A stretch of 25,110 bases of DNA from Propionibacteriaceae bacterium (GCA_031285505.1 JAITVZ010000065.1:1-25110), one strand, 5' to 3'. Shown: positions 2,268 to 24,214, counted from the first letter of the stretch. Program-made: numbers and translations. Notes: generated by a model from the sequence alone, not told the origin.

Positions 2268-3302
2268 ATGACCAGCCAGAGTCGATCGCACCGCCTACGC
2301 AACATGCTGCTGATCATCCTGGGCGTAATCCTGATCGCGGCTGGTTTCGTCGTTTCTCGGGCTTGGGCGACCCTCGACGCTGTGGCCAACGGCGGTGGCA
2401 CCACCGAGCCGATCGCCGGGCGCTATAACATCGCCTTGCTCGGCTCAGACTCGGCCGACTGGCGTGACGATGCCCGGATCGACTCGATCACCGTCGCCTC
2501 GGTCGACGCTGTCACCGGTCGCACCTTGCTGATTTCAACATCGCGGAGTCTGACGGCTTTTCCTTTCCCTGCCACCTCCCCACTGCATCAGCTTTATCCC
2601 GACGGCTATGTCTGCCCTGATCAAGAGCGCCAACCGTGCATGCTGACCACCATTTACCAACTCGGCCTGGACCACGCCGACCTTTATCCCGGCAGTGCCG
2701 ATCCAGGAGCCGAAGCCATGGTCGATGCCATCGAGGGCATCACCGGCTTGACGATGAACTACTACGCCTTGATCGACATGGACGGATTCGAGGGTCTGAT
2801 CGACGCACTCGGCGGGATCGACATCACAGTGAACCAGAGAGTGCCAATCGGAGCGGTCGGCATCACTGATTACTGGATCGAGCCAGGCAGCCACCACTTC
2901 AGCGGTCCCGAAGCTTTGTGGTACGTTCGCAGCCGCATCGACACCGACGACGCCGCCCGGACGATCCGCCAGCGATGCGTCATGTTGGCCATGCTCAATC
3001 AGGTAGACCCCGGAACCATCGCCAGTCACTTCTTCGATTTGATGAACGCTGCCAGCGATGTGGCTCAATCCAATGTGCCCATCAGCGCCGTCGCTGGCCT
3101 GGCTGACTTGGCCGCCAAGGCCACACGCTGGACCGTCACCACTATGACAATCTCACCGACGGCTTCGCCCACAGGCCAAGAGTCATATACCTTTATCACC
3201 GCCGAGGTGGCCGCTGCCGTCGCAGCTGCCGAGGCGCGTGACGACGGCGCTTCCTCCCCTGCCGACCTGACACAGGACTTGACGACCATTTGCGGCTACT
3301 GA
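2268..3302 (+). CDS. LytR-CpsA-Psr (LCP) family cell-envelope phosphotransferase, paralog 1, with an N-terminal TM helix.
   Basis: N-terminal TM helix. LCP-type motifs YNIALLGSDSADWRDDARIDSITVASVD and ALWYVRSRIDTDDAARTIRQRC. GGAG RBS 8 nt upstream of the ATG. Confidence 0.75.
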   Translation: MTSQSRSHRLRNMLLIILGVILIAAGFVVSRAWATLDAVANGGGTTEPIAGRYNIALLGSDSADWRDDARIDSITVASVDAVTGRTLLISTSRSLTAFPFPATSPLHQLYPDGYVCPDQERQPCMLTTIYQLGLDHADLYPGSADPGAEAMVDAIEGITGLTMNYYALIDMDGFEGLIDALGGIDITVNQRVPIGAVGITDYWIEPGSHHFSGPEALWYVRSRIDTDDAARTIRQRCVMLAMLNQVDPGTIASHFFDLMNAASDVAQSNVPISAVAGLADLAAKATRWTVTTMTISPTASPTGQESYTFITAEVAAAVAAAEARDDGASSPADLTQDLTTICGY

Positions 3303-3359
3303 AACCCGTGGTGGCCCGACATTGTCTCGGGCCTTTGAGCGCGTGGTGGGTGTGATACC

Positions 3360-3770
3360 TCAAACCAGCACGACAGTGATCAGGCCGCCCAGTTGCTGGA
3401 AGCCGGATAGATCGCGGGTGGCGACCGTCAGGCCGTGGGCCAGTGCCGTGGCGGCGATCATGCGGTCAATGCGCCGAGCTTTGACATCGCCTTCACGATC
3501 CGCGACATGCGCACAAATGCGCTGATAAGCGTTGACACATTGGTCATCGTATGGAATTCCCGGGCCGAAGAGGTTCGTCAACCCCTGGTATCTGGCCCAT
3601 CGCTGGCGGAAAACCTGCAGATCCCTTGTTGAGTAGATGCCCATGACCAGTTCTGAGAAACTGAGGCTCGACACAGTCAATCCGCTGTGTGCGCTGAGAT
3701 CGGGCGTCTGCTCGCCAGGTTCTCCGGTCGCGATCAGCACATTCGTGTCGAGGAGGACTACCGAACCCAT
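3360..3770 (-). CDS. vapC: PIN-domain toxin (VapC type).
   Basis: Starts MGSVVLLDTNVLI, the typical acidic PIN N-terminus. It overlaps the upstream antitoxin gene by 13 bp. Confidence 0.75.
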   Translation of the reverse strand: MGSVVLLDTNVLIATGEPGEQTPDLSAHSGLTVSSLSFSELVMGIYSTRDLQVFRQRWARYQGLTNLFGPGIPYDDQCVNAYQRICAHVADREGDVKARRIDRMIAATALAHGLTVATRDLSGFQQLGGLITVVLV

Positions 3771-4109: not shown

Positions 4110-4889
4110 ATGACTAATCCGACCAAGATCACCCGCCGACTGATCGCCAGCGGACTGGCTGTCTTTTGCATGGCCGCGGCGCTGACCCCAACCGCCCAGG
4201 CCGACGACACTCAACCCTTGACTGTCACACCAACCGGTTGGGTGGCCACTGGCTCCCAGTTCACGGTCTCCGGCGCCGACTGCGCCGCCAAGAACAACGG
4301 CTCCGACGAGGTCGTCATCACCGCCAGTTATGGCAGCGGCTCCGACTCTTGGGTGGTCAAGCCGGCCGCCGACGGCAGTTGGTCGACCGATCGGATCGCC
4401 GCCTACTGGGGCAACGGGCAGATCAGCGCCACCTGCGTGATGTACGACGAGTCAACCCCAAGCACCCAGGCCGCCAAACTGACCGAACCAGCAGCCGCTG
4501 GCATAGCCGCGGCGGCGGCATCGACCCGCCGCACCTTCGACTATGTCGCCCAGCCTTACGCCTTCACCGGCTTCGCTGCCAAGGGTGAGGTGACCGCCGG
4601 GGCGACAGTCACCATCAGCGGTGGCGGTTATGCGCCTGGTGAGACGGTCAGCTTCACCATCGGAAACGGCTTCTTCGCCAGCCTGGTGGCCGACGCCCAA
4701 GGCAACATCAAGGGCCAGATCACCATTCCGGCTGACGCCACTGTCGCCGGCGCGGCGGTCACCGCCCAAGGCCAAAGCAGCCGCCGAGCCGTCAGCGACG
4801 CCGTCGTGGCGGTCGCCGCCCCGGTATATAAGGCCGAAGTCGGCACCCCCACCTATGTCATGCCGGCCCTCGGCACTGACGTCATCTGA
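4110..4889 (+). CDS. Secreted Ala/Gly-rich hypothetical protein with signal peptide. Its C-terminal Ig-like segment resembles one in the LRR protein.
   Basis: Signal peptide MTNPTKITRRLIASGLAVFCMAAALTPTAQA. AGGAAGG RBS. GFAAKGEVTAGATVTISGGGYAPGETVSFTIGNG parallels GFLPGEQVKVTVHS...SFTIPEG of the 75..2057 protein. Confidence 0.6.
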   Translation: MTNPTKITRRLIASGLAVFCMAAALTPTAQADDTQPLTVTPTGWVATGSQFTVSGADCAAKNNGSDEVVITASYGSGSDSWVVKPAADGSWSTDRIAAYWGNGQISATCVMYDESTPSTQAAKLTEPAAAGIAAAAASTRRTFDYVAQPYAFTGFAAKGEVTAGATVTISGGGYAPGETVSFTIGNGFFASLVADAQGNIKGQITIPADATVAGAAVTAQGQSSRRAVSDAVVAVAAPVYKAEVGTPTYVMPALGTDVI

Positions 4890-7252: not shown

Positions 7253-8629
7253 TTGATTGGAACTTACATGCCTGACCAAACCCCCGCCGATTCACCGCAA
7301 CGACCCAACCAGCCTCGCCCAGCCACCCCACCAGTGCCGACTGGCCCCAGCCGCCCATTATCAGCCGTCAAACCACGAATCATCGGCCAGACCAGCGACC
7401 GCTTAGCCGATCCCGTTGGCCCGGCGGTGGAGACTACGACGCCCAGCGACCACCCCGCGTCCAACACCCCGGCTACTGCCGACGGCTCTGCGCTTTCGGC
7501 CGCCAAACCAAAGGCCTCAGATGGCAGCTCCGCGGCCACTGTCAGCCCCCAGGCAAACCGCCCGTCGACCTCAGCTGATCAAGCGGCGCCCCATCTTGGC
7601 GGTGTCAATGCTCAGCTCAGCACCTCAAGCGCGACCGAAGCAGCATCTCTACCATCGAAGAGCGGCCTGTCGGCTGGCCCGGCCTCCTCCGGTAGGCCCC
7701 AGCCGACAGCTGCCATCGTCAACGAGGCTGCCGCCACCACCGATCCCCTGTCCGAGCGCCCGGCTTACAACATCGACGGCATCCTTGGCCTGTTGGTGGT
7801 TCTGGTCGGCTTCATCGGCGGCATCTTGCTCTGCGTTTTCGCTGGAGTCACCTCTCGTGATGGTTCGCTGACCGCCGGAGGCACCGCCATGCTGATCCTC
7901 GGGCTGCTGCTGTTGGTGGTCGACATGCTGGCCTGGACCAGTCTGACGGTGGTGGCCCCCGGCACCACCAAGGTCCTGCAATTCTTCGGCAATTATGTCG
8001 GCACTGTTCGCACGACCGGCTTGCGGCTGGTGATGCCTTTGACCAACAAACGGGCCGTCTCGGTCAAGGTACAAAACTTCGAGACCCGCGAGATCAAGGT
8101 CAACGATTCGCAGGGCAACCCGGTGATCATCGCCGCCATCATTGTCTGGCAGGTCCATGACACCGCCAAAGCCGTCTTCAGCGTCGAGAAATATGAGAAA
8201 TTTGTCACTGTCCAAGCCGAGGCGGCCCTGCGTCATATCGCCACCATCCACCCCTACGACAACGGTGAGGCTGGCGAAGCCACGCTGCGCGGCGCCACCG
8301 ATCAAGTGGCCGCCGAATTGGCCAAGGAAGTGGCCGAGCGGGTGGCAATTGCCGGAGTCACCATCACCGAGACGCGGATCTCATCCTTGTCATACGCGCC
8401 GGAAATCGCCTCGGCGATGCTGCAGCGCCAACAGGCCCAAGCGGTGTTGGCCGCTCGGGCGAAGATCGTCGAAGGGGCGGTCACCATGGTCGAGTCAGCC
8501 CTGGACCGCCTCGAACGCGAAGACGTCGTCAAGCTGAATGACGACCGCAAGGCCGCCATGGTGTCAAACCTGCTGGTGGTGCTCTGCTCTGATTCTCGTG
8601 CCATGCCGACGGTCAACACCGGGGCGTGA
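7253..8629 (+). CDS. SPFH/Band-7 (stomatin/flotillin-like) membrane protein with a long Pro/Ala/Ser-rich N-terminal region and two TM segments. True start may be ATG at 7268.
   Basis: SPFH-like core VLQFFGNYVGTVRTTGLRLVMPL...QNFETREIKVNDSQGNPVIIAAIIVWQV. Hydrophobic helices LLVVLVGFIGGILLCVF and MLILGLLLLVVDML. Confidence 0.7.
   Translation: MIGTYMPDQTPADSPQRPNQPRPATPPVPTGPSRPLSAVKPRIIGQTSDRLADPVGPAVETTTPSDHPASNTPATADGSALSAAKPKASDGSSAATVSPQANRPSTSADQAAPHLGGVNAQLSTSSATEAASLPSKSGLSAGPASSGRPQPTAAIVNEAAATTDPLSERPAYNIDGILGLLVVLVGFIGGILLCVFAGVTSRDGSLTAGGTAMLILGLLLLVVDMLAWTSLTVVAPGTTKVLQFFGNYVGTVRTTGLRLVMPLTNKRAVSVKVQNFETREIKVNDSQGNPVIIAAIIVWQVHDTAKAVFSVEKYEKFVTVQAEAALRHIATIHPYDNGEAGEATLRGATDQVAAELAKEVAERVAIAGVTITETRISSLSYAPEIASAMLQRQQAQAVLAARAKIVEGAVTMVESALDRLEREDVVKLNDDRKAAMVSNLLVVLCSDSRAMPTVNTGA
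8393..8629 (+). repeat. Direct repeat copy 1 (237 bp), the intact 3' end of the SPFH gene.
   Basis: Base-by-base alignment with 9372-9607. Identity is about 95 percent, with several substitutions and one 1-bp indel. Confidence 0.85.
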
Positions 8630-8736
8630 TGTGACAAACGGGCAATCCACCCTGAAAGCCTTCCTCAGAACAACACTCTTAGATACTTTTGATTGCTTTT
8701 GGTGCACCACCGTTCACTAAAAGCATGAACTCTAAG

Positions 8737-9015
8737 TCAGCCATTGAATGGTTGGGAATGTTGATACAGATATTCTGGTGACACATCAATATTGACGTCT
8801 GGCCAGGTTGGCACACCGCCATCAAGTGCAACGCGCGTAAATGTTTGAGTATCGCGCAATTGTGCGAACACTCCAGCGCTCAGGAGTGGCGTCATATCAA
8901 CGGTTTTCTCTTCGCCGGTGGAGAAGCGTAGCCATAGTCGGTGATCAGGTTGGGCTTGAATACCGACCACGGTGATAAGTGGTTCAGCGTAAGCGATTCC
9001 ATTGATAATATGCAT
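8737..9015 (-). CDS. DUF2442-family small protein, downstream member of a DUF4160/DUF2442 pair.
   Basis: 92 aa. LWLRFSTGEEKTVDMTPLL...WPDVNIDVSPEYLY resembles DUF2442 conservation. Lies in an A+T-rich segment. Confidence 0.6.
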   Translation of the reverse strand: MHIINGIAYAEPLITVVGIQAQPDHRLWLRFSTGEEKTVDMTPLLSAGVFAQLRDTQTFTRVALDGGVPTWPDVNIDVSPEYLYQHSQPFNG

Positions 9016-9024
9016 ATTAGTAAT

Positions 9025-9291
9025 TCATCGTAATGGGTCGATAGGAGCGAATGGCTCGCCACGAACAGCTTTGTTCCATGCGGCATATACGGCCTCTTCG
9101 TGAATAGCGAGCCAAGCGACAACGAGCTTCAATTGCTTGACAGGCAAGCTGCCAGCAAGTAGCTCCCCATCAACGCCAATTGAGGCGTTATGTTCTCCAT
9201 AATAAGCATGGATGTGTGGTTTACTGTGTTGACCGGTATCGGAATAAATAAGCTTGATGAGAATACCGAAAAACCGTGACAACTCAGGCAT
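9025..9291 (-). CDS. DUF4160-family small protein, upstream member of the pair. Start refined to MPELSRFFGI.
   Basis: AAGGAGG RBS 6 nt upstream of ATG at 9291. PHIHAYYGE motif typical of DUF4160. The ORF track's longer start (9327) lacks an RBS. Confidence 0.6.
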   Translation of the reverse strand: MPELSRFFGILIKLIYSDTGQHSKPHIHAYYGEHNASIGVDGELLAGSLPVKQLKLVVAWLAIHEEAVYAAWNKAVRGEPFAPIDPLR

Positions 9292-9371
9292 GACGTACCT
9301 CCTTGGTGGATGCCAGTTTAGCACCATTGCCCGAACGGTGCCGTGGCTAGAAGTGCATTGCCGTCCTGTTT

Positions 9372-9607
9372 TACGCGCCGGAAATCGCCTCGGCGATGCT
9401 GCAGCGCCAACAGGCCCAAGCGGTGTTGGCCGCTCGGGCGAAGATCGTCGAAGGGGCGGTCACCATGGTCGAATCAGCGCTGGACCGCCTCGAACGCGAA
9501 GACGTCGTCAAGCTCAACGACGACCGCAAAGCCGCCATGTGTCAAACCTGCTGGTGGTGCTCTGCTCTGATTCTCGGGCGATGCCGACGGTCAACACCGG
9601 GGCGTGA
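9372..9607 (+). pseudogene. Degenerate, frameshifted duplicate of the SPFH gene 3' end (direct repeat copy 2, 236 bp).
   Basis: Encodes ...[47 protein letters not shown], then shifts frame through a 1-bp deletion (gccatgGtgtca vs gccatgtgtca). No upstream gene body. Confidence 0.8.
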
Positions 9608-9790
9608 AGGCAGGCAAGCCCTCACAATGCATTAGATTTTCGCCTCTCCTAGCCCCTCCGGGCACCAGATGCTCCTTCAAACGAAACCACTCATTCATTC
9701 GCCATCCGACTATCCAGAAGGATTGTGCCCAGACTCGCCAAGACTCACTCATACCGCAGATTTGCTTCCGAGGGAGGGGGGACAATACTC

Positions 9791-9819
9791 TTCCGTAATG
9801 ATATTTCATCCTGTAATAT
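9791..9819 (+). promoter_or_regulatory. Possible sigma70-like promoter TTCCGT-N17-TAATAT upstream of the small precursor-like ORF.
   Basis: Hexamer spacing seen by eye in an A+T-rich stretch. Weak. Confidence 0.25.
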
Positions 9820-9840
9820 CAATGTTAATTGGCGGTTGTC

Positions 9841-10101
9841 ATGAATCATCGACAGTCTAGGATCGTTGCATCGCTCGCAATGATGGCGTCAGTGCTGATA
9901 CCCACAAGCCTATTCCAAGCAGCTACGGCGCTTGGCCTTGGAGTCGGACTTGCCACTTGCCTCTACTGGGGCATTCAGGGCTTCTCTTGGGCAGCCCTTG
10001 CGATGGCGTTCATCGGGGCATTTGATATCGGCGCTGTCGCCGCTTCGGCGATCTGGGCCTACGCCAAGAAGGTCGCTTTGAAGACCTTCCTTACCTGGTG
10101 A
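9841..10101 (+). CDS. Small hydrophobic peptide (86 aa from ATG 9841), a candidate circular-bacteriocin precursor. A probable leader is followed by a ~55-65-aa helical, Trp-rich core ending in C-terminal Trp.
   Basis: MNHRQSRIVASLAMMASVLIPTSLFQAATALGLGVGLATCLYWGIQGFSWAALAMAFIGAFDIGAVAASAIWAYAKKVALKTFLTW. Followed by a strong hairpin and then membrane protein, ABC ATPase and membrane protein genes. Confidence 0.4.
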   Translation: MNHRQSRIVASLAMMASVLIPTSLFQAATALGLGVGLATCLYWGIQGFSWAALAMAFIGAFDIGAVAASAIWAYAKKVALKTFLTW

Positions 10102-10107
10102 TGTGAA

Positions 10108-10148
10108 TAGGCGGGTTGGCGCCACACAAGCGGGCGCCAACCCGCCTA
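10108..10148 (+). terminator. Very stable hairpin (16-bp stem TAGGCGGGTTGGCGCC / GGCGCCAACCCGCCTA, 9-nt loop) immediately after the precursor-like ORF. Likely an attenuator or partial terminator.
   Basis: Perfect inverted repeat starting 7 nt after the stop codon. Confidence 0.55.
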
Positions 10149-10173
10149 CCGTCTGCTCATTGTTGGGAGTGGC

Positions 10174-11583
10174 ATGATGAAATGCGCCAGAGCAAAGAGT
10201 TATTTGCCAATAGTATTTGGCTTCTGGAGCGACGACGCTCGAAGGCTGACGATAAGTCTTACTCGGAGACTGTCATATTGGTTTGACCATGCCCAACTAA
10301 TTGCCCGTTGGTTAATTATATGTCGCGATGCTAGTCCTATTGCAGTTTTGGCACTCCCACTAATTCTTTGCCTAAGACCGGCTGCCAGTTGGCAGAAAGA
10401 CTTGATCGCCCAACTACTGTGTCTAATTGTCTTTCTATCAGTCGGCGACAAGACTGACCGCAATCGGCACTCACAATTGCTGAACGTTGGCCGCAGAATG
10501 CGCCTAGCTTGGCTAGTCGTCCGGCGGCGTTGGACTTTGCCGGCAGTTCTGGCTCTCGTGCTGATGACTACTCTGACTCTGCGGCCAAACATTGCCCTGC
10601 TTGCCTTCGCGGTCGCACTGTCGACAGTCACCCAAAGTTTTCATCTGGTAACTCGCAAGTTGAACCGGTTATACGTCACACTTTCATCTACTGTCGCTTG
10701 GCTAGTTTGGCTATCGGTCGGAATTCACACCGCCACCCTGATCACCGACAACTCGCTTATACGACAGATCAGCAACTGGTGGAACAATATCAGTCTCGAC
10801 CTACCTCTATCATCAATACCCATCGCAGTCTTGAGCGGTGCCTGCGCCTCAGGCTTCACACTCGCTGCTATGAAAATCCTACAATTTCGCCGCGTTATCG
10901 CATGGGAGAAGCTTGCATGGTTACCCATAGGACTCACCAGCTGTCTAGTTTCGGCTATCAGCACTCTTGCGATCATTGCCGTTCGAGACTCCCCTATCAA
11001 ACTTACTCTGGGTAATCTGATCCCAAGCACCGCAATTGTACTTTTGTCGCTTCTCACTGAAGTTCGCCGGTCCCGGCTGGTTTCTCCCGAAGGCCTAGGT
11101 TTCGCCCTGTTCTGGTTGCGGGACCAGGGTGTCCAGTCGACCAAAATTTGGGGCAATGCCCTGCGTTGGAAAGGTTGCCTGTGCAGTGGGGTCATCATCG
11201 TTGAAACGGTCCTATCGCTGACCATAGGCGCTGGCTGGTCAGCCGTGGCGCTACTGCTCGCTGCCATTCTGGCTGCTGCCGGCCTCAATTTACTGATCGT
11301 CTTACGGACTACGGTCCTACTGCCAGCCGGCCAGCTACCTGTTCTCTACTCCAGCACCAGCTCGGGATTGGGCAGCGCCACGATATTGGCCTGTTTACTC
11401 GGCGTCTCAAGCATCAGCCTCGGCATGACGGTCAGCAACATACAGCCGATCGTTTTTTGGCTCGCATCGGCAGTACTGCTGCTTCTCGGAATGAGCACAT
11501 TCTATCTTGGCTTCAATGATGGGCCGCGTTGGTTGACGGTCGTGCGTATCACTATGAATGACACTGAAACCGTGGGGAGCTAA
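10174..11583 (+). CDS. Polytopic integral membrane protein with at least 10 predicted TM helices, in the size and position of a DUF95/SpoIIM-like maturation-secretion protein of circular bacteriocin loci.
   Basis: 469 aa and highly hydrophobic throughout. GGGAG RBS. No catalytic motif recognised, so the family assignment rests on context. Confidence 0.5.
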   Translation: MMKCARAKSYLPIVFGFWSDDARRLTISLTRRLSYWFDHAQLIARWLIICRDASPIAVLALPLILCLRPAASWQKDLIAQLLCLIVFLSVGDKTDRNRHSQLLNVGRRMRLAWLVVRRRWTLPAVLALVLMTTLTLRPNIALLAFAVALSTVTQSFHLVTRKLNRLYVTLSSTVAWLVWLSVGIHTATLITDNSLIRQISNWWNNISLDLPLSSIPIAVLSGACASGFTLAAMKILQFRRVIAWEKLAWLPIGLTSCLVSAISTLAIIAVRDSPIKLTLGNLIPSTAIVLLSLLTEVRRSRLVSPEGLGFALFWLRDQGVQSTKIWGNALRWKGCLCSGVIIVETVLSLTIGAGWSAVALLLAAILAAAGLNLLIVLRTTVLLPAGQLPVLYSSTSSGLGSATILACLLGVSSISLGMTVSNIQPIVFWLASAVLLLLGMSTFYLGFNDGPRWLTVVRITMNDTETVGS

Positions 11584-11585
11584 TC

Positions 11586-12209
11586 GTGATTACCATCAAC
11601 GACTTGTCATTTGCATATGGCAGACATGATGTTCTGAAAAACATGACGGTTGAATTACCCGATCAGGGAGTCGTTAGTCTGACTGGCCCGAATGGGGTGG
11701 GAAAGACCACCCTATTAAAGGCGCTTGGTGGGCTTTTCGACTGCAGTATTGATATTTGCCCGCCACGAACTTCCGGAAGTTGGCGATATTTTGACGCCGA
11801 TTTCTTATCACTGGACCACCTCACCGTCAGCGAATTTGTTGGTCTAATGTTGGCAGCTGACTTGAGTGGCTCAGTCGCCGCGACAAAAATCGCCACTCTC
11901 ATAGATGATCTTAAGGACCAAACCGTTGGAGCATTATCACTGGGGCAAAGCCAGCGTCTTGTCTTGGTATTAGCCTTGAATAGTCAGTTCGACGTGCTCC
12001 TGCTGGATGAGCCATTCAACGCCCTTGATACCATCAACATCGGCATCATCGAAGAGCTCATCAGCGAGGCAGGCCGTGATCATTTAGTAATCTTTGCCAC
12101 CCACCGAGACGACGTCATGGCTGGTCGGTTGTCAGCCACCGTCAGAATGATTGATAGTGAGACAGCCGAGACGACCTATTTTGATTTAACCAAGTTTGAA
12201 ATCAAGTGA
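11586..12209 (+). CDS. ABC transporter ATP-binding protein (single NBD).
   Basis: Walker A GPNGVGKTT, signature-like LSLGQSQR, Walker B VLLLDEP. GTG start with GGGGAG RBS, 2 bp after the upstream stop. Confidence 0.8.
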   Translation: MITINDLSFAYGRHDVLKNMTVELPDQGVVSLTGPNGVGKTTLLKALGGLFDCSIDICPPRTSGSWRYFDADFLSLDHLTVSEFVGLMLAADLSGSVAATKIATLIDDLKDQTVGALSLGQSQRLVLVLALNSQFDVLLLDEPFNALDTINIGIIEELISEAGRDHLVIFATHRDDVMAGRLSATVRMIDSETAETTYFDLTKFEIK

Positions 12210-12221
12210 TGGGGATCGATC

Positions 12222-12839
12222 ATGAGTTCTGAATTAGCGTCTTCCAACAGAGACGAATCCTCGCGGAATGTTAGCGAGAATTGGCCCCAAATCAGACCTG
12301 CCGACAGGGGGCGATTAATCGAGCGACCCAAACTGCTGAACTGGCTAATTGTGGTGATGGTCGTTGGCTGGTATGCGGCTGCCATGCAAATGGTGGCCAA
12401 GCCGATATTGGATGAGGGGGTGGTCAGAGCCGGTGGCAATAGCGGCTTCGCCTCTGATCATGCCTATCGCCTGTTCCTTTGGGGGGCTTTGCTGATCATG
12501 TCACTGGCGGCGCCATGGTTGATGGCCCTGGTCTTGCGATTGGTCATCCGGGTCGTAGCCAACCAGAGGACCAGCTTCTTCCGTAGCATCAGTGCCGTCT
12601 GTTTCGGCCTAGTGCCATTCATTGTTGTCGTCGTCATCATCCAGGTGGTCACTGGCGCTAGCCCTTACCTGCTGCCTGGATGGCGCTGGATCAATCTGGC
12701 AGTGCTGACCGTGTTGGGAACCCTGATCAGCGTCAGATACCTGCGCCATGAGATTGGCTCGATCGGTCGACAGGTAGCCCTCTTCGCCATTCTCTTCAGC
12801 CTGAATGTGTTATTCATGGTGCCAACCATCGGCTTGTAG
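12222..12839 (+). CDS. Membrane protein (about 4 TM helices), a possible accessory, immunity or permease component. Its 3' end lies in a 334-bp direct repeat.
   Basis: Hydrophobic segments LNWLIVVMVVGWYAAAM, LFLWGALLIMSLAAPWLMALVL, VCFGLVPFIVVVVIIQVV, INLAVLTVLGTLISV. Confidence 0.55.
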   Translation: MSSELASSNRDESSRNVSENWPQIRPADRGRLIERPKLLNWLIVVMVVGWYAAAMQMVAKPILDEGVVRAGGNSGFASDHAYRLFLWGALLIMSLAAPWLMALVLRLVIRVVANQRTSFFRSISAVCFGLVPFIVVVVIIQVVTGASPYLLPGWRWINLAVLTVLGTLISVRYLRHEIGSIGRQVALFAILFSLNVLFMVPTIGL

Positions 12840-12983
12840 AAGTCGGCTCAGCGCAGAGGCCTCTATAAGTTCCGGAAGAACAGTTCCACTCGGTCGGTCG
12901 TCCAGGTGGCGACACCGGTGCCGAAGAAGTCGTGATCCTCGGTCCAGATGGGACAATCGATGGCCAAGGCAGCTGCCAGGACG
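12650..12983. repeat. Direct repeat copy A (334 bp), spanning the 3' end of the 12222..12839 gene, the intergenic spacer and the 3' end of vapC.
   Basis: Aligns without indels to 13587-13920, with about a dozen substitutions. Confidence 0.85.
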
Positions 12984-13291
12984 TGCCAATCATCGGGGTC
13001 ACGTCGGCCGATGCGGGCTAGAGCCTCGTCCCGGAAAGGCGAATAATGCTCCTGCGGCAAAACGGTGATCAACGTCTGCGTCTCGTCCAAGAGGGCTAAG
13101 GCCGCTTCGATTTCGGGCAAACCCCGCCGCCGATAGATGCCTTTGAGTCCACGCTCCGCCTCAGCGACGCAAGCCACCGGCACAACAAAGCCGACTATTC
13201 CCGACTGATTGGAAATCACATTCCTGACTCGGCGTCCAAGCACGGACCGAATCAGGATGTTGGCATCCAAGATGAGGGAGCGCCTAGGCAT
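12863..13291 (-). CDS. vapC: PIN-domain toxin (VapC type). Start refined to MPRRSLILDANILI.
   Basis: PIN N-terminal acidic motif. ATG at 13291 overlaps the antitoxin stop by 8 bp. Confidence 0.75.
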   Translation of the reverse strand: MPRRSLILDANILIRSVLGRRVRNVISNQSGIVGFVVPVACVAEAERGLKGIYRRRGLPEIEAALALLDETQTLITVLPQEHYSPFRDEALARIGRRDPDDWHVLAAALAIDCPIWTEDHDFFGTGVATWTTDRVELFFRNL

Positions 13292-13534
13292 TGCCGGACT
13301 GACGCGATGTTTCGTATTCGCCAATCAACTCATCGGGGTCGACTCCTTGGCGGGACAGCATCGCATCCACCCGTTCGGCCAGCTCATCGAAACGCTGCCG
13401 ATCAAACGGCCGCCGGCGCTCTTGGGGAATGTAGGTGCCAATGACTTGGCCATGTCTGGTCACATCAACCGGAGTGGACGAATCCAAGTAGGTCGACAAC
13501 TCTTCGCGGAACTGTCGGACGCCGACGGTAGGCA
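13284..13534 (-). CDS. Phd/YefM-type antitoxin. Start refined to MPTVGVRQFREELSTYLD.
   Basis: AGGAGA RBS 6 nt upstream of ATG at 13534. The ORF track's GTG start at 13589 is unlikely. Confidence 0.7.
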
Positions 13535-13565
13535 TCGTTATTCTCCTGACTGAAGCCCGTTTAGG

Positions 13566-13585
13566 TGTACTCCAAGTGTACACTG
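13566..13585 (-). promoter_or_regulatory. Candidate operator or promoter element for the vapBC pair. GTGTAC-N5-GTGTACAC contains the perfect palindrome GTGTACAC.
   Basis: Located 30-50 nt upstream of the antitoxin ATG, exactly at the repeat junction. Confidence 0.35.
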
Positions 13586-13586
13586 A

Positions 13587-13920
13587 CACTGGCGCTAGCC
13601 CTTACCTGCTGCCCGGATGGCGCTGGCTGAATCTGGCGTTGCTGACCGTGCTAGGAAGCATCATCAGTGTCAGATACCTGCGCCATGAGATTGGCTCGAT
13701 CGGTCGACAGGTAGCCCTCTTCGCCATTCTCTTCAGCCTGAATGTCTTATTCATGGTGCCAACCATCGGCTTGTGACAGTTGGCACGGCGCAGAGGCCTC
13801 CATAAGTTCCGGAAGAACAGTTCCACCCGGTCGGTCGTCCAGGTGGCGATGCCGGCACCGAATAAGTCGTGATCCTCAGTCCAGATGGGGCAATCGATGG
13901 CCAAGGCAGCTGCCAGGACG
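13587..13920. repeat. Direct repeat copy A' (334 bp). It carries truncated duplicates of the membrane-protein 3' end (13591-13776) and the vapC 3' end (13800-13920, minus strand).
   Basis: Alignment to 12650-12983. Downstream sequence (13921 onward) differs from what follows copy A. Confidence 0.85.
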
Positions 13921-13942: not shown

Positions 13943-16072
13943 CTAGACCTGGAACCACCCCAGCCACCAGGGCGGCGAATCAATGACTTTCCCACCGGTT
14001 TGGACGGCCTTGGGCGGATTGGCCACTGCTGGAGAATTGGGATCAACCCCGCCCGGCGGGGTCGGCTCAGGATCGACCGAGCAATCCAGCCATTCGGCCG
14101 ATCCCGGCAGAATCTTCGGCGCATCGGTCACCGCGTAGGCGTCGAGCATCGTCTCAATCAGGCTGGAGCCTTCGCCGGCGACGGTCAACCGCAAGCTGAC
14201 CGACGCCCCCACCGGGGCGACGACCTCACCTAGATAGGTCGCCTGCGCGCTGTCTTGGACGATCGAACCTGGGCCCGACGAAGCCGGCGATCCACCCGCC
14301 GACCCAGCTGAACCCGCGGCATCAACCTTCATCGTCACCGTCTGCCAACTGACTCCCCCATCGGTTGACTGCTCCAACCGCAGCTCATCAAGCGGCAGGT
14401 CAGCCGCGCCAGCGGCCATGCCGGTGTGAACAATGATTGGCTGCGCCGTGGCGCCTCGATTGGCAGCATCGATGCCTGGTAGCTCGATATTCGCCGAGCG
14501 CAGCGGTTCGATCCGACCCTCTGCCGAGCCTTGACTGGCCGAATGCCAGCGCCAGCTGGCGGCGATGCTGATCGGCGGGCCCCATTGCGACAAATCGACC
14601 AGGCTGGCCTGACGCAACTCATACTCCTGACCTTGATCTGGCAGTCCAGGAACCACAAGCGGGCTGACACCCGGCGGAACAGCGGCCCTGATCAGCGACT
14701 CGCCACTGCTGAGGTTGACCAGTTCGAGACTGGTCTGTGCCGCACCCTGCAGGCCGGTGGCAGTGAATGACGGCTCGGAGTTGCCCTGCCCATCGCTAAG
14801 CACGTTTGGATAGACAACCATCGTGTCGGCCACACGGCTGGTTTCGAAGCCTGCGGGCTGGTTCAGGGTCAACACCGGCCCACCGATGTCGAGCTGGCTG
14901 ATCTGCCCCAGGGGGAAGACTGTGGCCGGTGTGACGAAGATGGCCGGATCGCTCGGTATCGACGGACCAGTCGGATCAGCAGGATCCTCGGAGTCAATTG
15001 GCGCCGTCGGGTCCCCATCCCCTGAGGTCAGCGGGTAGTCGCTTTCAATCGTCCATGACAGCTGCGGCGACGCCCACAAGCGATACTGGCTGGGCAGAGG
15101 CTGTTCGACCGGGAAGGAGAACAGCGACACCGACCCCGCCGCGGCTGCGTCGGGCCAGGCAACGGTGAACACCTCCTGGACAGTGTCCAAATCACCGCCA
15201 TGGCGATGGCTGACATCGACCGCCGCCAGGTCTCCGGTTTCAGCCGTCAAGACGAAATCAGCCTGTGACAAGCCCGAACGACTGGCCAAAGCATAGACAT
15301 CATCCGGCACGGTCTTCCCATCCAACGAGCAATCGGCCAAGCGATCACCCGGGGGCGTCGCCAAGACGCCGAGCAGATCAAGCTGCCAAGAGCCCAAATT
15401 GTTATCCGCTGTCGGCAGGATCGCCAGAGCATCATCGAGTCGTCGATCAAAGGAGACGACATTGTTGAAATTAGACAGCCAATCACCAGCCGAATTAGAT
15501 AGCCCCAGCCGCGCCGACACGGAGCCATGTCCGGGCAAATCCGGGAGCAGCTCGACCGTCTTGGCAAGGCTGCCATCGAGTTTGAGCGTCGTTGGCTCGG
15601 ACAATGTGAACGGACCAGCCGGCAAAACGGTCACGACATAGCCGCCATCATCGGTCATGACCTGGTCGGTCACCACCAGCGCATAATCACCCTCCACCAG
15701 CGGCATCGACCAGTGGCCGTCGACCATCGGCGTGAAGGTGCTTTGACCGCTATTGATATCGACCAGCGCCACATAGGCCGGCTGTGCCGGATCAGCCCCG
15801 GCGGGTTGACCCAGCAGATTGGTCGCCTCGATGGTCAGATCGTGAGTCACCGGGGCGTTGTTCCAGCCGATTGGTGTGCGAATGAGCTGCCCGAAGGTCG
15901 TGGTGGCGTTGACGTAGCCCCCGACATAGCCGATATCGAAGAGGTTCGGGTGGATTATCACCGTGACGCTGGCTTGACCACCGGCTGGCACAGTGACTGT
16001 GTTGGCCGACAACTCAATCGCTCCGTCGGGTGCTGGGGTGGCGGGCAGCACAAAAACCGACCCAGCCGACAC
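13943..16072 (-). CDS. C-terminal ~709-aa portion of a large subtilase, or a separate beta-sandwich domain protein. No signal peptide. In frame with the upstream S8 ORF and separated from it only by one TGA.
   Basis: Frame arithmetic: the stop at 16124-16126 and the GTG at 16072-16070 are 54 nt apart. The 17 intervening codons have no stop. AQ-rich linker on both sides. Confidence 0.5.
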   Translation of the reverse strand: MSAGSVFVLPATPAPDGAIELSANTVTVPAGGQASVTVIIHPNLFDIGYVGGYVNATTTFGQLIRTPIGWNNAPVTHDLTIEATNLLGQPAGADPAQPAYVALVDINSGQSTFTPMVDGHWSMPLVEGDYALVVTDQVMTDDGGYVVTVLPAGPFTLSEPTTLKLDGSLAKTVELLPDLPGHGSVSARLGLSNSAGDWLSNFNNVVSFDRRLDDALAILPTADNNLGSWQLDLLGVLATPPGDRLADCSLDGKTVPDDVYALASRSGLSQADFVLTAETGDLAAVDVSHRHGGDLDTVQEVFTVAWPDAAAAGSVSLFSFPVEQPLPSQYRLWASPQLSWTIESDYPLTSGDGDPTAPIDSEDPADPTGPSIPSDPAIFVTPATVFPLGQISQLDIGGPVLTLNQPAGFETSRVADTMVVYPNVLSDGQGNSEPSFTATGLQGAAQTSLELVNLSSGESLIRAAVPPGVSPLVVPGLPDQGQEYELRQASLVDLSQWGPPISIAASWRWHSASQGSAEGRIEPLRSANIELPGIDAANRGATAQPIIVHTGMAAGAADLPLDELRLEQSTDGGVSWQTVTMKVDAAGSAGSAGGSPASSGPGSIVQDSAQATYLGEVVAPVGASVSLRLTVAGEGSSLIETMLDAYAVTDAPKILPGSAEWLDCSVDPEPTPPGGVDPNSPAVANPPKAVQTGGKVIDSPPWWLGWFQV

Positions 16073-16123: not shown

Positions 16124-18238
16124 TCACTGGGCGGCCAGCCCATGCCCTGGCAGCCCCGCCTGGGCCTGGTCTTGAGCCAAAGCCTGCCCAGGGTTAGCCG
16201 TGGGGGCTGTGTCAACGGTGGCCAAACCGCGGCTGGGCACACTGACCAAGGAAGCCGCCAAGTCAAGCATCTGATCCTGATCGCTGAGGTTCTTCCAGGT
16301 CAGGGTGCGCTCAGCCGAAGTGGCGGCTGGCGGGTCGAAAGCGCCGAAATCCAGAGACGAGCTGTCGGGGATGAGATTGGCCGCCAAAGAGGCGGGGATG
16401 TTCAGCAGCCCTGCCCCCTGCTGGAAGACAGCTGAGCCATCCGGCAGCGGACTGGCCCCAGCCATCAAGCGTGATTCAAGACCATCACGATCCAGGGTCG
16501 GGTCCGATTCCAATAGCAGCGCGGCCGCCCCGGCCACCAAGGGGGCCGCCATCGAGGTGCCGTAATAGTTGTCGGAAACATAGCCATCACTGCCCGCGCC
16601 GGCGCCGACCAGACCTGTTGTCAAGGGCATGCCGCTCTCATCGAGCAGGGGGAAGCCGGTCTCATCGACCGGCGCCAAGGCGGCCCCCGGCGCCATGATC
16701 TGCGGGCTGACCGCGCCATCACCGCGCCGCGGCCCAGTCGATGACCACCAACCAAGATTGCCGAATTGGTCGGTCGCCCCAACGGCCAACGCCTCGGAGG
16801 CCGTCGCCGGAGCGTTGATGGCTTGATCGGACATGTCATTGCCGGTTGCCACCACAAACAAACATCCGTATTCAGCAGTCAAAGCGTCAAGCGTCCGAGA
16901 GACCAGCAAGCTGCCGTCGTCGTAATATCCCGGAAAACCCAGACTCATGTTGACGATATCCGCCCCATGACTGGCGGCCCACTCCATGCCCTCGATCACC
17001 TGGGAATCGGTGCCTGAGCCATCGGCGCCGACCACCTTGGCACTGAGCAACTGGGCCTTGGGGGCCACCCCTTGATAGAGGCCAGCCGAGGCGGCGCCAG
17101 TGCCGGCGATCTCCGAAGCGACAAAGGTGCCGTGGCCGTTGTGATCCAAGCCATCACCATCGACTGAGAAATCGACTGTGTCGATCACCTGACCAGCTAA
17201 ATCAGGATGCCGGGTATCGATGCCAGTATCGACCACTGCCACCGTCACACCCTCACCCAGCAACCCGGCGTCATGGGCCTGGTCAGCGCCGATCAATGAC
17301 ATCCAGGCTGGCGTGTCATCGCTGACCTCGGTCAACGCCGTGATTGTCGACAGGTCGAACTGGTGTTGCCGATCCAACCAGATCTGGCTGACAGCCGCAT
17401 TGGCCGCCGAGCGCTGCGACAAGCCCTCAGCGGTCGGTTGGGCCAGGGCTTCGATCAATCCCCAACTGGGAGCCGGACCAGCTTCAACGCTGGTGTCTGC
17501 CCAACCGACCGTGGCGGGCAAAGCCGTCAGCCTGGTCGTCACCGACAGGCCGGCGGCATCCATATCGAATGCCGCTCCACGACTGATGGAGGTCAATGGG
17601 TTGGTCTCGACGATCAGCGGCAGATCACCATTCGGCCCGAGGTCATAGCTGGCCAGAAGGCTGACGTTGAACAGTGCCTGATCCAGACCGTGGCCGATCA
17701 AGGCGACGACGTCTGAGGGGAAAACGAAGATACCATCGGCCGTTTGGGAAATGCTCAGATGGGCTGACCTGCCATCCGGGCGTGGCGCCAACACCGTCGA
17801 TCGCACCGCGCCATTGGCATCAATGAGCACCTGGTCACCGGTGATCAGACGCACTGATGAACCAGCGGCGGTCGAGTTGCTGGCCGATTCAGTGTCATTG
17901 CCCGCCCCGCTGCCATTGGCCAAGCCTGTCTCAACCGTCGGCACCAGCGGCGTCGAATCGGCAGCGGTGACCGGTGCGGCTACGGCCGAAACCCCGCCAA
18001 CGGCAGCCCCAATCAGACTGACCACGGTGGCCACCGCCAACAAGGCGACCCGCACCCGCGGTTGAGCCAGCTGCCGTCGCCGCCCCGGACTGACCATCGT
18101 GCCAGCTGCCCCGGTCGCCCCGGCCGCCCTTGCTCTCCCGCTTGTCCCGCGTACCGCTCTCGGGCCAGACTCCCCTCTCCGGCTACTCCTCGCGCTCACG
18201 CCGCTTGTCGCCATCGGTTCCCCTGTCATCATCGACAC
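16124..18238 (-). CDS. Subtilisin-like serine protease (S8 family), N-terminal part with signal peptide. Probable true start is ATG at 18097.
   Basis: Catalytic triad motifs VAVVDTGID (Asp), HGTFVASEIAG (His), GTSMAAPLVAGAAALL (Ser). Signal-peptide-like VRVALLAVATVVSLIGAAVGGVSAVAA. Confidence 0.8.
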   Translation of the reverse strand: MSMMTGEPMATSGVSARSSRRGESGPRAVRGTSGRARAAGATGAAGTMVSPGRRRQLAQPRVRVALLAVATVVSLIGAAVGGVSAVAAPVTAADSTPLVPTVETGLANGSGAGNDTESASNSTAAGSSVRLITGDQVLIDANGAVRSTVLAPRPDGRSAHLSISQTADGIFVFPSDVVALIGHGLDQALFNVSLLASYDLGPNGDLPLIVETNPLTSISRGAAFDMDAAGLSVTTRLTALPATVGWADTSVEAGPAPSWGLIEALAQPTAEGLSQRSAANAAVSQIWLDRQHQFDLSTITALTEVSDDTPAWMSLIGADQAHDAGLLGEGVTVAVVDTGIDTRHPDLAGQVIDTVDFSVDGDGLDHNGHGTFVASEIAGTGAASAGLYQGVAPKAQLLSAKVVGADGSGTDSQVIEGMEWAASHGADIVNMSLGFPGYYDDGSLLVSRTLDALTAEYGCLFVVATGNDMSDQAINAPATASEALAVGATDQFGNLGWWSSTGPRRGDGAVSPQIMAPGAALAPVDETGFPLLDESGMPLTTGLVGAGAGSDGYVSDNYYGTSMAAPLVAGAAALLLESDPTLDRDGLESRLMAGASPLPDGSAVFQQGAGLLNIPASLAANLIPDSSSLDFGAFDPPAATSAERTLTWKNLSDQDQMLDLAASLVSVPSRGLATVDTAPTANPGQALAQDQAQAGLPGHGLAAQ

Positions 18239-18430: not shown

Positions 18431-18688
18431 ATGGCTGCAACTATCACCGTGCGGAACCTGAGTGAGGACACCCAACGTGTCTTGCGGCACCGAGCTATCG
18501 ACCACAATCAGTCATTCGAAGCTGAAGTCAGGCAAATTCTCACTGAAGCCGCACAAGCGAGTTCATCAACGGCAACACCAGCGGCAACCATCTTCGCGGC
18601 TGCAGACCAGTTCCGGAAAGCAACCTCTGGTCTCGGCTTCACCCTGCCACCCCGTCTTGACGAAACACAAAGAGACGTAAATCTATGA
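18431..18688 (+). CDS. vapB: Ribbon-helix-helix antitoxin (VapB/FitA-like).
   Basis: MAATITVRNLSEDTQRVLRHRAIDHNQSFEAEVRQIL is a classic RHH antitoxin N-terminus. GAAGGAGGGG RBS. ATGA overlap with the downstream PIN gene. Confidence 0.75.
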   Translation: MAATITVRNLSEDTQRVLRHRAIDHNQSFEAEVRQILTEAAQASSSTATPAATIFAAADQFRKATSGLGFTLPPRLDETQRDVNL

Positions 18689-19146
18689 TTATCCTCGACA
18701 CGAACATCGTTTCGGCGCTCTTTGTCTCAACGCACCAGGACCACCGGCAATTGAGAACATGGTGTGACGCTTGCCTCGATCAAGAGTTTCGCATCTGCGC
18801 GCCGACTCTCGCTGAGATTGAATATGGGATCGCCATCCTGCCGGCAGGCGCTCGCAAGGAACAACTGATCCACGAGGCACACCTTTTCCTTTCCAAGACA
18901 GCACAATGGATCCTGCCCTTCGGAGCGCGTGACGCCAGTGAATACGCGATCATCACGGCCCAAAGACGACCCATTAGCATCTTCGATGCTCAAATCGCTG
19001 CCATCACTCGCACGGCCGGAGCCACCTTAGCCACCCGGAACATCAAAGACTTTGAGAACTGTGGCATCACTCTTGTCAATCCCTACCAGATCACCTTCTC
19101 TGCACAGGCGGATCATGGTGAACCAGTCGACCGGAACAACCAATAG
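18685..19146 (+). CDS. vapC: PIN-domain toxin (VapC/FitB-like).
   Basis: MIILDTNIVSALF... PIN signature. 4-bp overlap with the antitoxin. Confidence 0.75.
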   Translation: MIILDTNIVSALFVSTHQDHRQLRTWCDACLDQEFRICAPTLAEIEYGIAILPAGARKEQLIHEAHLFLSKTAQWILPFGARDASEYAIITAQRRPISIFDAQIAAITRTAGATLATRNIKDFENCGITLVNPYQITFSAQADHGEPVDRNNQ

Positions 19147-23800: not shown

Positions 23801-24214
23801 GTCCAGGCTACTGGTGGCGCTTTGCAGTTGCGCGACGGTGGCAGAGGCATCACTTTGAACGGCATGGAGCCCGGCAATGGCGGTGGCGACCGCGGATTCA
23901 TGAGAGACCGGGCGGGCGTTGGTCAGCGCCGATTGGGCGGAATCACGAGCACTGGCCAGTTCCACGTTGATGGCCATGATGGCGATGTCCAGAGGATAGG
24001 CCTTAACCGTGTCGACGCCCTGGTTGGCATTCGAGCTCAAGCCCGTGGCCGGTCCAGATGGATTCGCATCGGCCGGATCAGCCACAGCCACCGCCCCCAA
24101 CAAACCACCACTGGCGAACAGCAACAGGCTGGTCAAGGCGGCAGTGGCCCTGACCCCCCGTTTCCTGGCTGTCCAGCTTGGCATTGTCGCCTCGGCTCGC
24201 TGCTGATCGTGCAT
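20879..24214 (-). CDS. Giant Ala-rich repeat surface protein (~1110 aa from ATG 24214). It has a signal peptide, many ~90-100-aa helical Ala-rich repeats (PVSHE... units), a Ser/Pro-rich stalk, and a C-terminal KVQTGA motif plus TM plus basic tail.
   Basis: GAGGAG RBS 6 nt before ATG at 24214. Signal-peptide-like ATAALTSLLLFASGGLLGAVAVADPADA. Repeats visible in translation. C-terminus ...KVQTGAVLDQGNHQALGLTALLTALAGGAAVFGITRSQIRQVKERSL. Confidence 0.7.
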   Translation of the reverse strand: MHDQQRAEATMPSWTARKRGVRATAALTSLLLFASGGLLGAVAVADPADANPSGPATGLSSNANQGVDTVKAYPLDIAIMAINVELASARDSAQSALTNARPVSHESAVATAIAGLHAVQSDASATVAQLQSATSSLDDAVLTAKQARDAANTAATDLIASAQASTAAGYPSVIDTIKNLQLIQAAAAVDSPTDLTASIAAATQALTDALAQQAAAREQAISGANAALTRTSPVSHEPGVVPAISNLQSVLADSKSSAAAITAATDVLKGEVASEEVNRQSAVYAAQIATSSAAQLEEDLANTDLQKQVQDLKDMLDRAAADSASDLTQQIIEATNTINFISKATDNVKVAAIRAANDAVLETRPVTNEPTVRKAIDDVNVLLQAQDSTSEQISAATTALTTAISQAKAERVVADQAAADAINNSATADGHGDIAVQVAVNVLRLARATAAADAADALSKDLDFRVAALKSAQALAVETAGEAAKQAQVAIADTAPVSNQPSVLALKQQLQAQIEAADATSTRIETASNALLAAAANAKQDRNDAITAANRAKSAAAGSSVASDPSVVAALSQLTDTIDRSKTDAANALTADILLAMDQLILAVDGAGQTTPTDPDAARQEAIAAANAALADLSPVSHESAVASAASNLSTLVADATATTAAIQAATSALTDASSAAKTARTAAVNDGQAVATAAKASAVGADSSVLAAVKAFDDLVASAGADSANATTANIQSAAQVITAAVESAQAAAADRAAAKNAGQVAIDDAKAAIDDPAVTSAIDQLTALMNDPTSATADIAAATTALGQLVRSKVVGAAQAMIDQAKASPAAGEPEVTQAVSALTGLLAKEDATLAQLTSATEALRAAVATSEAELSSDAAARAAAVTAANNAISQAESVKSVAAVAAAITSLQQAISDPDSTADDLTALTAALNQAVATANASPSESPSGSPSSTPSSTPSGSPSSTASPTESGSPSASPSGSPSASPSGTPSGSPSSIPSGSPSATPSGSNTANPTPGPSQSASPTAQPTNTSAASSSSAASGSGKSSSVASTPVKSSTVKTAGPKVQTGAVLDQGNHQALGLTALLTALAGGAAVFGITRSQIRQVKERSL
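21115..21385 (-). repeat. Degenerate 12-18-bp tandem repeats encoding the (S-P-S-G/S-P-S-A) stalk of the giant protein.
   Basis: Repeated GGCGAAGCGCTCGGTGA(T/G)CC(A/C)GAC-type units on the plus strand. Translation SPSGSPSSTPSSTPSGSPS... Confidence 0.6.

Follow-up and report, generated by a model that had tools for sequence, protein, structure and literature searches.

A SpoIIM-less relative of circular bacteriocin gene clusters, probably acquired horizontally, in a metagenome contig of a Propionibacteriaceae bacterium

Known circular bacteriocin systems and the Propionibacteriaceae locus

Circular bacteriocins are produced from minimal sets of five to seven genes, of which enkB-B1-B2-B3-B4 is an example (PMC6131525, PMC8534725, PMC8659200), and the enzyme that closes their ring is still unknown (PMC6131525). 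Here we describe a locus comparable to these systems on a contig of 25,110 nt from the metagenome-assembled genome of a Propionibacteriaceae bacterium (JAITVZ010000065.1; GenBank proteins MDR2895833-MDR2895835), the whole of which is called the window below. The locus is a co-directional series of four genes, A (peptide), B (membrane protein), D (ATPase) and E (membrane protein), which are homologous to, and in the same order as, genes of clusters in other bacteria that carry an additional gene, C, for a SpoIIM/DUF95 protein. No SpoIIM gene is present in the window. Based on these data, we consider it likely that the locus is a horizontally acquired, C-less member of an undescribed circular-bacteriocin subfamily and that it is probably not self-sufficient for production.

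Enterocin NKR-5-3B, which falls in family i with uberolysin, circularin and carnocyclin, is encoded by five genes (enkB-B1-B2-B3-B4) for a precursor, a large membrane protein, a DUF95 protein, an ATPase and a further membrane protein (PMC6131525). Our locus and its relatives resemble this system and its family in the long hydrophobic leader of the precursor and in the basic, hydrophobic core, which starts with Leu, ends with Trp and has a Lys-rich stretch on its C-terminal side, as well as in an LGIS motif near the core start and a profile match of 92% probability. The differences lie in the length of the core (64 residues in NKR-5-3B, 56 here), in the window peptide, which scores below the TIGR03651 and PF09221 cut-offs, in the order B-D-C-E of the subfamily, in proteins B and E, which have no family model, and in the lack of a DUF95 gene from the window copy.

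The AS-48/bacteriocin 21 system (as-48ABCC1DD1, on plasmid pPD1) is similar in consisting of a structural gene, a hairpin and genes for a 556-residue membrane protein, a SpoIIM protein and a 219-residue ATPase, all co-directional, and its ATPase family is clearly related to ours (99.6% probability by hhalign). It differs in that no sequence resemblance to As-48A, As-48B or any other AS-48 protein could be detected for A, B and E, in its 70-residue, far more cationic core, and in its extra EFGH transporter. A circular-bacteriocin-type cluster has also been predicted in silico in an actinobacterium, Arthrobacter sp. APC 3897 (PMC10456417), but its peptide is 71% identical to AS-48 and its cluster contains a DUF95 gene, whereas the kinship of the present subfamily with AS-48 is remote. 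An earlier note on the window, made from its sequence alone, had called circular bacteriocins essentially uncharacterised by experiment in Actinobacteria; this holds, but the Arthrobacter cluster has been predicted, and an intact cluster of the present kind is found in the Kocuria strain described below.

The locus comprises the following features, with positions counted from the first letter of the window.

9841..10101, plus strand: gene A, 86-residue precursor peptide (open reading frame, ORF; homology to the peptides of relatives)
10109..10147, plus strand: hairpin between A and B (folding energy, shuffle z-score)
10174..11583, plus strand: gene B, 469-residue polytopic membrane protein (four phmmer homologues, synteny)
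11586..12209, plus strand: gene D, 207-residue ATP-binding cassette (ABC) ATPase with a GTG start (Pfam ABC_tran, 2.8e-16)
12210..12221, no strand: D-E junction of 12 nt, site of the SpoIIM gene of relatives (synteny comparison)
12222..12839, plus strand: gene E, 205-residue membrane protein (hidden Markov model, HMM, of the E family, 2.4e-17)
13587..13776, plus strand: partial second copy of the 3' end of gene E (300-nt direct repeat)

Five related clusters were compared with the window: one in Kocuria (contigs L002 and L006, counted once), three on contigs L003, L004 and L005, and one on Bacillus mycoides plasmid p192 (L007). The contigs of the first four (L002 for Kocuria) encode a peptide of 77-97 residues, a B protein of ~470 residues, an ABC ATPase of ~200 residues, a SpoIIM protein of ~180 residues and a membrane protein of ~185 residues. 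The C proteins of L003 and L005 matched PF01944 with 35.6 and 27.6 bits (Pfam cut-off 26.9), the match was weak in L002/Kocuria, and the p192 gene carries the PGAP name 'stage II sporulation protein M'. In blastp comparisons, A, B, D and E of the window each matched their counterparts, with B matching all B proteins. The gene order is A-B-D-C-E in L002/L006, L003, L005 and L007 as against A-B-D-E in the window. The subfamily motifs were absent from supplementary lists of three published genome-mining studies and from the searchable literature, and the clusters appear to form an undescribed circular-bacteriocin-type subfamily that spans Actinobacteria and Bacillus and is not named by current family models.

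By a motif scan of GTDB genomes, the L002 cluster was located in NZ_BAAARF010000010.1 of Kocuria salsicia JCM 16361. In this type strain, which is in culture, the cluster is intact (A-B-D-C-E, L006 3797-7249; the same cluster in the Logan contig L002). The cluster of B. mycoides JAS635 plasmid p192 (NZ_CP036127.1; L007 5932-9545) was found by tblastn with the peptide of a relative. Both contain true homologues of A, B, D and E in the order of the window, with the same 56-residue region in the peptide, and both differ from it in having SpoIIM between D and E and in having no hairpin between A and B. The Kocuria cluster has in addition a gene for a 55-residue secreted peptide and a divergent LuxR-type two-component system. 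In the p192 cluster, precursor genes are present as a tandem pair (85 and 95 residues, both annotated as hypothetical), and an ABC transporter like AS-48 EFGH follows on the 3' side, with recombinase and ETX/MTX2 toxin genes nearby.

If the window proteins are taken alone, the locus could pass for an ordinary ABC transporter operon accompanied by unrelated small membrane ORFs, its resemblance to bacteriocin clusters being coincidental, as Pfam and NCBIfam scans of the four proteins recognised just the ATPase, and that by a generic ABC match. Because the gene set and its order are kept in at least five other loci from two phyla, the locus is more than a product of chance, and the five-gene synteny with SpoIIM across Actinobacteria and Bacillus, together with a peptide profile similarity well above that of shuffled controls, has already largely refuted this explanation, which we regard as very improbable. 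The earlier note had itself allowed that homologues of the small ORF might prove to be ordinary membrane proteins without such neighbours; every detectable homologue lies directly 5' of a B gene and a small ATPase gene, and in four of the five clusters SpoIIM is present too. Its core idea of a circular-bacteriocin-type locus is thus supported by the gene sets of the relatives and by the 92% profile match.

Its further claim, that the window holds the minimal circular-bacteriocin toolkit, fell, as the hallmark SpoIIM gene is the one that is missing. Neither membrane protein of the window matched PF01944, and an HMM of the C family, run over 276 stop-to-stop segments from all six frames of the 25-kb window, found nothing (best E 1.8). 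Where the relatives have a SpoIIM/DUF95 gene of ~180 codons, the window has a D-E junction of 12 nt. The same junction is found in L008, an independent Logan assembly contig (SRR14710890) with 100% identity to window positions 9547-12761, and because this contig was assembled independently, the gene order did not arise from misassembly of the metagenome-assembled genome. The locus appears to be a four-gene, C-less derivative of the A-B-D-C-E subfamily. In L004 (JGI 3300042655, high G+C), B is shortened N-terminally to 380 residues (2459-3601) and the C gene is an 85-residue remnant with an in-frame internal deletion (4277-4534), without the central LN..G and HVPLE motifs; L004 is thus another instance, separate from the window, in which this cluster has decayed.

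The precursor peptide and its kinship with circular bacteriocins

Gene A encodes 86 residues from an ATG at 9841, with an alternative TTG start at 9829, and its product contains LGLGVG as residues 31-36 and ends in KTFLTW. Residues 1-30 (9841-9930) constitute the leader, with a basic N-terminus, an 18-residue hydrophobic stretch and, right before Leu31, the signal-peptidase-like site A-T-A; this leader looks like a signal peptide, as do those of AS-48 and NKR-5-3B. The GenBank calls conflict with the homologues, giving the peptide 69 residues from an internal GTG start and B 339 residues from Met131, and the JGI and Logan gene calls give 86 residues for the peptide and 468 for B. We preferred the 86-residue start because the leaders of the relatives have a basic N-terminus, and the full 469-residue ORF for B because its collinear homologues measure 468-472 residues.

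The window peptide is 35-48% identical to the peptides encoded 5' of all four B homologues and 34-35% identical to the two peptides of B. mycoides p192. In an alignment of seven peptides (those of the window, L002, L003, L004 and L005 and the two of p192), the last 56 residues, corresponding to L31-W86 of the window (9931-10098), align without gaps and contain the invariant positions L1, A8, Y12, K46, K47, F53 and W56. Conservation begins six residues upstream of Leu31, with the pattern [FY]-x-A-x-x-x-L-G. The boundary between leader and core, which the earlier note had left undefined, was in this way narrowed to two plausible sites, before Leu31 or before the invariant Ala27 (-4). A core from Leu31 would have 56 residues and a calculated mass of 5864.9 Da as a ring (5882.9 Da linear); a core from Ala27 (9919), the residue that aligns with Leu1 of NKR-5-3B in the profile alignment, would have 60 residues and a mass of 6179.3 Da as a ring (6197.3 Da linear). 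The relatives have T or S at -1, unlike the window with its A-T-A before Leu31.

The window core, with the invariant Leu first and Trp last, has an isoelectric point (pI) of 9.05 and a grand average of hydropathy (GRAVY) of 1.16, and across the subfamily these values are 9-10 and 0.8-1.24, comparable to carnocyclin A. Many family-i circular bacteriocins start with Leu, end with Trp and have a Lys-rich stretch ahead of the C-terminus. When the core alignment of the seven peptides was compared by hhalign with eight known cores of family i, the probability was 92% (E 6e-7), and the LGIS motif of the peptide family was paired with that of enterocin NKR-5-3B. The score was 32-34, as against 9.5 +/- 1.9 (maximum 16.5) in 100 column shuffles and 12.9 for the reversed alignment. 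The AS-48 sequence was validated by a 100% match on pPD1, and the calculated ring masses of AS-48, NKR-5-3B and carnocyclin A agree with literature values. Because the intact relatives contain the gene set by which such clusters are defined in print and their peptide profile matches, we regard them as a divergent subfamily of circular-bacteriocin type. The locus is very probably homologous to circular-bacteriocin clusters, and, with somewhat less assurance, we expect the peptides of the A-B-D-C-E subfamily to be cyclised.

A precursor model from AlphaFold, run on the single sequence, is a two-helix hairpin (pLDDT, the predicted local confidence, 81) for which Foldseek found no match in the PDB at E < 0.8 and none to solved circular bacteriocins. 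Searches of PDB sequences with phmmer (peptide) and hmmsearch (peptide family) gave nothing useful, and tblastn against plasmids gave no match for the window peptide or for P0004.

The two-helix model would also suit a linear, Sec-exported hydrophobic peptide, either a class IId-like bacteriocin or a small membrane protein, that the whole subfamily would make together with an ABC transporter and leave uncyclised. The leader, with its basic N-terminus, 18-residue hydrophobic stretch and A-T-A before Leu31, has the look of a Sec signal and favours this alternative. On the other hand, long hydrophobic leaders are likewise present in several of the known circular bacteriocins (PMC6131525), and the relatives, with T or S at -1, have their genes next to SpoIIM-type maturation genes. 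In the literature, circular bacteriocin clusters are recognised by the joint occurrence of SpoIIM, a small ATPase and a B-type protein; the invariant terminal Leu and Trp and the fixed length of 56 residues fit the constraints of ligation, and the profile matches known circular bacteriocins. We therefore judge a linear product improbable.

The accompanying genes, the hairpin and the genomic surroundings

The 469-residue protein B has about ten or more hydrophobic segments and no match in Pfam or NCBIfam. The earlier note had taken it for a DUF95/SpoIIM-like protein, an assignment contradicted by the Pfam profile search, which gave no PF01944 match; it belongs to a B-type family instead. Searches of 5.8 billion proteins by word index, for which A, B and E served as queries, gave only self-matches or nothing, and an exhaustive phmmer search with B (1.84 billion representatives) found four homologues of 380-472 residues with ~30% identity (E 2e-5 to 3e-4), all encoded 3' of a peptide gene and 5' of an ATPase gene. 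They align collinearly, share the motifs SPEGLGxxLFxxR and VxQRxTxLPAxQL, and have S221, G222, E306, G309, R316, R378 and W453 among their invariant residues. A scan of metagenome and viral contigs with the B motifs found no relatives. In position, size and hydrophobic profile B fits the As-48B/CirB/EnkB1 type, with no similarity to As-48B detectable in a test of low power, and it is placed in a family of its own, which in position and size corresponds to As-48B/EnkB1.

Protein D consists of a nucleotide-binding domain only, with intact Walker A, signature, Walker B and H-loop motifs, and is 40-45% identical to the ATPases of the family, 31% to that of B. mycoides and 27% to As-48D. For protein E, five hydrophobic segments were counted, four above the Kyte-Doolittle threshold and a fifth (~155-175) by eye. 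E matched the E proteins of L003, L004, L005 and B. mycoides by blastp, and gave nothing below E = 1 against any C protein. The possibility that the 205-residue protein is a divergent SpoIIM was considered and rejected, as the relatives carry both proteins and it aligns with E. Its AlphaFold model is of low confidence (pLDDT 64; pTM, the predicted template-modelling score, 0.31). The product of gene E had no protein entry in a collection of 15 billion proteins, and a degenerate DNA pattern modelled on the gene's conserved 3' end had no match in genome or metagenome collections. Comparisons by hhalign of the B, C and E families with single AS-48 proteins gave no signal, in a test whose low power is evident from the failure of even the C family against As-48C. 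As the earlier note had said of a dedicated immunity gene, no small cationic hydrophobic ORF was found between 9790 and 12863, and none is obvious in the relatives.

The ORFs and the hairpin reported in that note were all found where it had placed them. The genes are co-directional, with spacers of 72 nt between A and B (holding the hairpin), 2 nt between B and D and 12 nt between D and E, the last two at the ends of the 2-12-bp range given earlier, and Shine-Dalgarno-like sites (GGGAG, GGGGAG and GGGGA) lie 4-6 nt 5' of the starts of B, D and E.

The hairpin at 10109-10147 has a G+C stem of 15-16 bp and a folding free energy of -43.8 kcal/mol, with a z-score of -4.5 to -4.9 against dinucleotide shuffles, none of 200 shuffles being equally stable; it has no U-tract. 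It had no Rfam match and no further copy in the window. The earlier description of it as exceptionally stable is borne out by these values, whereas the proposed role in transcript stoichiometry is left with an analogy, a comparable hairpin (z -3.5) lying 3' of the AS-48-type structural gene on pPD1; the hairpin itself is not conserved in the closest relatives. The hairpin is presumably a partial terminator, a processing site or a transcript stabiliser; that it boosts the structural-gene transcript relative to read-through is suggested by the pPD1 analogy and would not be a conserved trait of the subfamily. A conserved attenuator of the subfamily was considered as well and rejected, as no comparable hairpin is found in the A-B spacers of five related loci (L002, L003, L004, L005 and L007).

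The segment is, as first noted, richer in A+T than its surroundings, with 49-58% G+C over positions 8500-13000 versus 60-68% in the flanks, and the G+C content at third codon positions (GC3) is 0.53-0.69 in the segment versus 0.71-0.79 in flanking genes. These compositions would mark the island as foreign and horizontally acquired. It is flanked on one side by cell-envelope genes (a leucine-rich-repeat surface protein, two LCP proteins, a sortase and an SPFH protein) and on the other by a subtilase region. On each side the cluster is bracketed by a toxin-antitoxin pair, which in turn lies between the copies of a direct repeat derived from a neighbouring gene's 3' end.

On the upstream side, the last ~240 nt of the SPFH/band-7 gene (7253..8629), including the stop codon (8388-8629), are repeated at 9367-9607 with 96-97% identity, at a spacing of 979 nt and with a 1-nt deletion in the second copy, and enclose a DUF4160/DUF2442 pair on the minus strand (8737..9327). 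This arrangement looks like a small cassette inserted by recombination at the 3' end of a gene, or like an assembly join between strain variants. On the downstream side, gene E ends 24 nt before a convergent vapC, and a 300-nt direct repeat (12650-12949 and 13587-13886; 91% identity, spacing 937 nt) duplicates the 3' ends of both genes and brackets a complete pair of vapC (PIN_2) and vapB on the minus strand (12863..13589). The second copy of E (13587..13776) comprises the last ~62 codons with ~91% nucleotide identity, differing by five synonymous and four conservative replacement changes. The two repeat units, of 979 and 937 nt, are close to each other in length, and within each there is a toxin-antitoxin-like pair. 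Contig L008 is interrupted within both repeats, which is what genuine repeats or strain variants would lead one to expect.

Further downstream, a 704-residue S8 subtilase (13943-16072) is followed by a 709-residue protein (16124-18238) and, further on, by a 1157-residue protein (20879-24352), all on the minus strand; Pfam recognised neither of the latter two. Two further genes for PIN-domain proteins were located at 3360..3770 (minus strand) and 18685..19146 (plus strand), and the contig is unusually rich in toxin-antitoxin-type genes.

A structural gene without annotated partners was observed in a known family. At L009 5001-5264, on the Enterococcus faecium plasmid pR1041-e4-56k, there is a gene like that of NKR-5-3B (87% identity), to which 109 Enterococcus plasmid records match. 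In the one record of the 109 that was inspected, it adjoins an IS30 transposase gene and has no annotated B-E genes, with a 1.5-kb stretch 3' of it for which the PLSDB gene tables, themselves incomplete, list no gene. It may be an orphan structural gene.

The state of the SpoIIM-less copy and its meaning

By analogy with characterised circular bacteriocins, the precursor of an intact system of this subfamily would insert in or approach the membrane by its leader, and a protease would remove this signal-peptide-like leader. Leu31, or possibly Ala27, would then be joined to Trp86, resulting in a basic and very hydrophobic ring of 56 (or 60) residues, which a membrane complex of B, C, D and E would mature and export while protecting the producer. 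In leucocyclicin Q, knockout of the DUF95 gene left mature circular peptide inside the cells and abolished secretion, and in other systems there is no production without the corresponding genes (PMC6131525). Because C is missing here and DUF95 loss blocks secretion or production in known systems, the window copy is most likely not self-sufficient and by itself would probably be unable to complete production or secretion. It could be a recently disabled remnant, it could be kept for an export-type immunity through B and D, perhaps with E, or its SpoIIM gene could lie elsewhere in an incompletely assembled genome.

Several observations weigh against the interpretation of the locus as a non-self-sufficient member of a circular-bacteriocin subfamily. 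The window peptide had no match at E <= 1 to Pfam PF09221 or NCBIfam TIGR03651, and the peptides of the relatives gave sub-threshold matches (TIGR03651, E 0.0016 for two of five; PF09221, E 0.023 for that of L003). The cores of characterised circular bacteriocins have 58-70 residues, a range below which a 56-residue core would fall. In blastp and phmmer comparisons with AS-48/pPD1 proteins, the ATPase alone was matched, with no similarity detectable for B and E. Cyclisation and antimicrobial action are predicted, by analogy, for every member of the subfamily. The contig represents only 25 kb of the metagenome-assembled genome, so that statements on the absence of gene C cover the window and not the genome. 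Finally, the four genes that are present (A, B, D and E) are all intact and have kept their conserved residues, which is unexpected for an old remnant; a functional system that is independent of C or complemented in trans is conceivable.

On the first of these points, garvicin ML, leucocyclicin Q, lactocyclicin Q and gassericin A also score below the PF09221/TIGR03651 cut-offs, and because confirmed circular bacteriocins do so, these models are not exhaustive. When six of the eight known cores used for the profile comparison were scanned against TIGR03651, four were above the cut-off and two below, with lactocyclicin Q, a member of that set, unmatched. On the last point, an old remnant is disfavoured because the four genes are intact and because the second partial copy of E differs mostly by synonymous or conservative changes.

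The same intactness, with conserved residues, ATPase motifs, good Shine-Dalgarno sites and tight spacing, is what a fully functional producer would show, SpoIIM being dispensable in this lineage or encoded elsewhere in the genome, of which we have 25 kb only. The circular peptide inside the leucocyclicin Q knockout cells (PMC6131525) indicates in addition that cyclisation may not need C. But that same knockout abolished secretion (PMC6131525), C lies inside the cluster in all characterised systems and in four of the five related clusters, and no SpoIIM-like sequence occurs in the window. A functional producer is accordingly an unlikely explanation in our view, and it is similarly doubtful that the locus provides this organism with a finished, secreted ring.

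Alternatively, after the loss of C, B and D as an ABC exporter, together with E, may protect a 'cheater' against the circular bacteriocins of its neighbours, with A carried along. In enterocin NKR-5-3B, the membrane protein EnkB1 and the ATPase EnkB3 confer partial immunity (PMC6131525); B, D and E are intact here, and C was lost or decayed independently in L004. Selection for immunity alone would not, however, require a peptide gene that is intact with all its invariant residues, and protection by the proteins of this subfamily is a prediction made by analogy. We rate such an immunity island slightly below the functional producer, as unlikely.

A bolder possibility is that a ring of 56 residues is still made from the four genes, in a circular-bacteriocin system that naturally does without SpoIIM, with B (through S221, E306, R316 and R378), and not SpoIIM, acting as the leader-cleaving or cyclising enzyme. 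An incomplete copy is more likely than such a new mechanism, to which we would give an outside chance. If true, no known circular bacteriocin would be smaller than this ring, which to our knowledge would also be the first from Actinobacteria.

For the subfamily as a whole, the fixed 56-residue region would represent the shortest conserved core yet, accompanied by a new and well-conserved family of B proteins. As Kocuria salsicia JCM 16361 is a cultured type strain with an intact cluster, the prediction is directly testable there. The window, in which SpoIIM is deleted, and L004, in which it is truncated, both with the other genes kept, offer natural material for the study of SpoIIM function.

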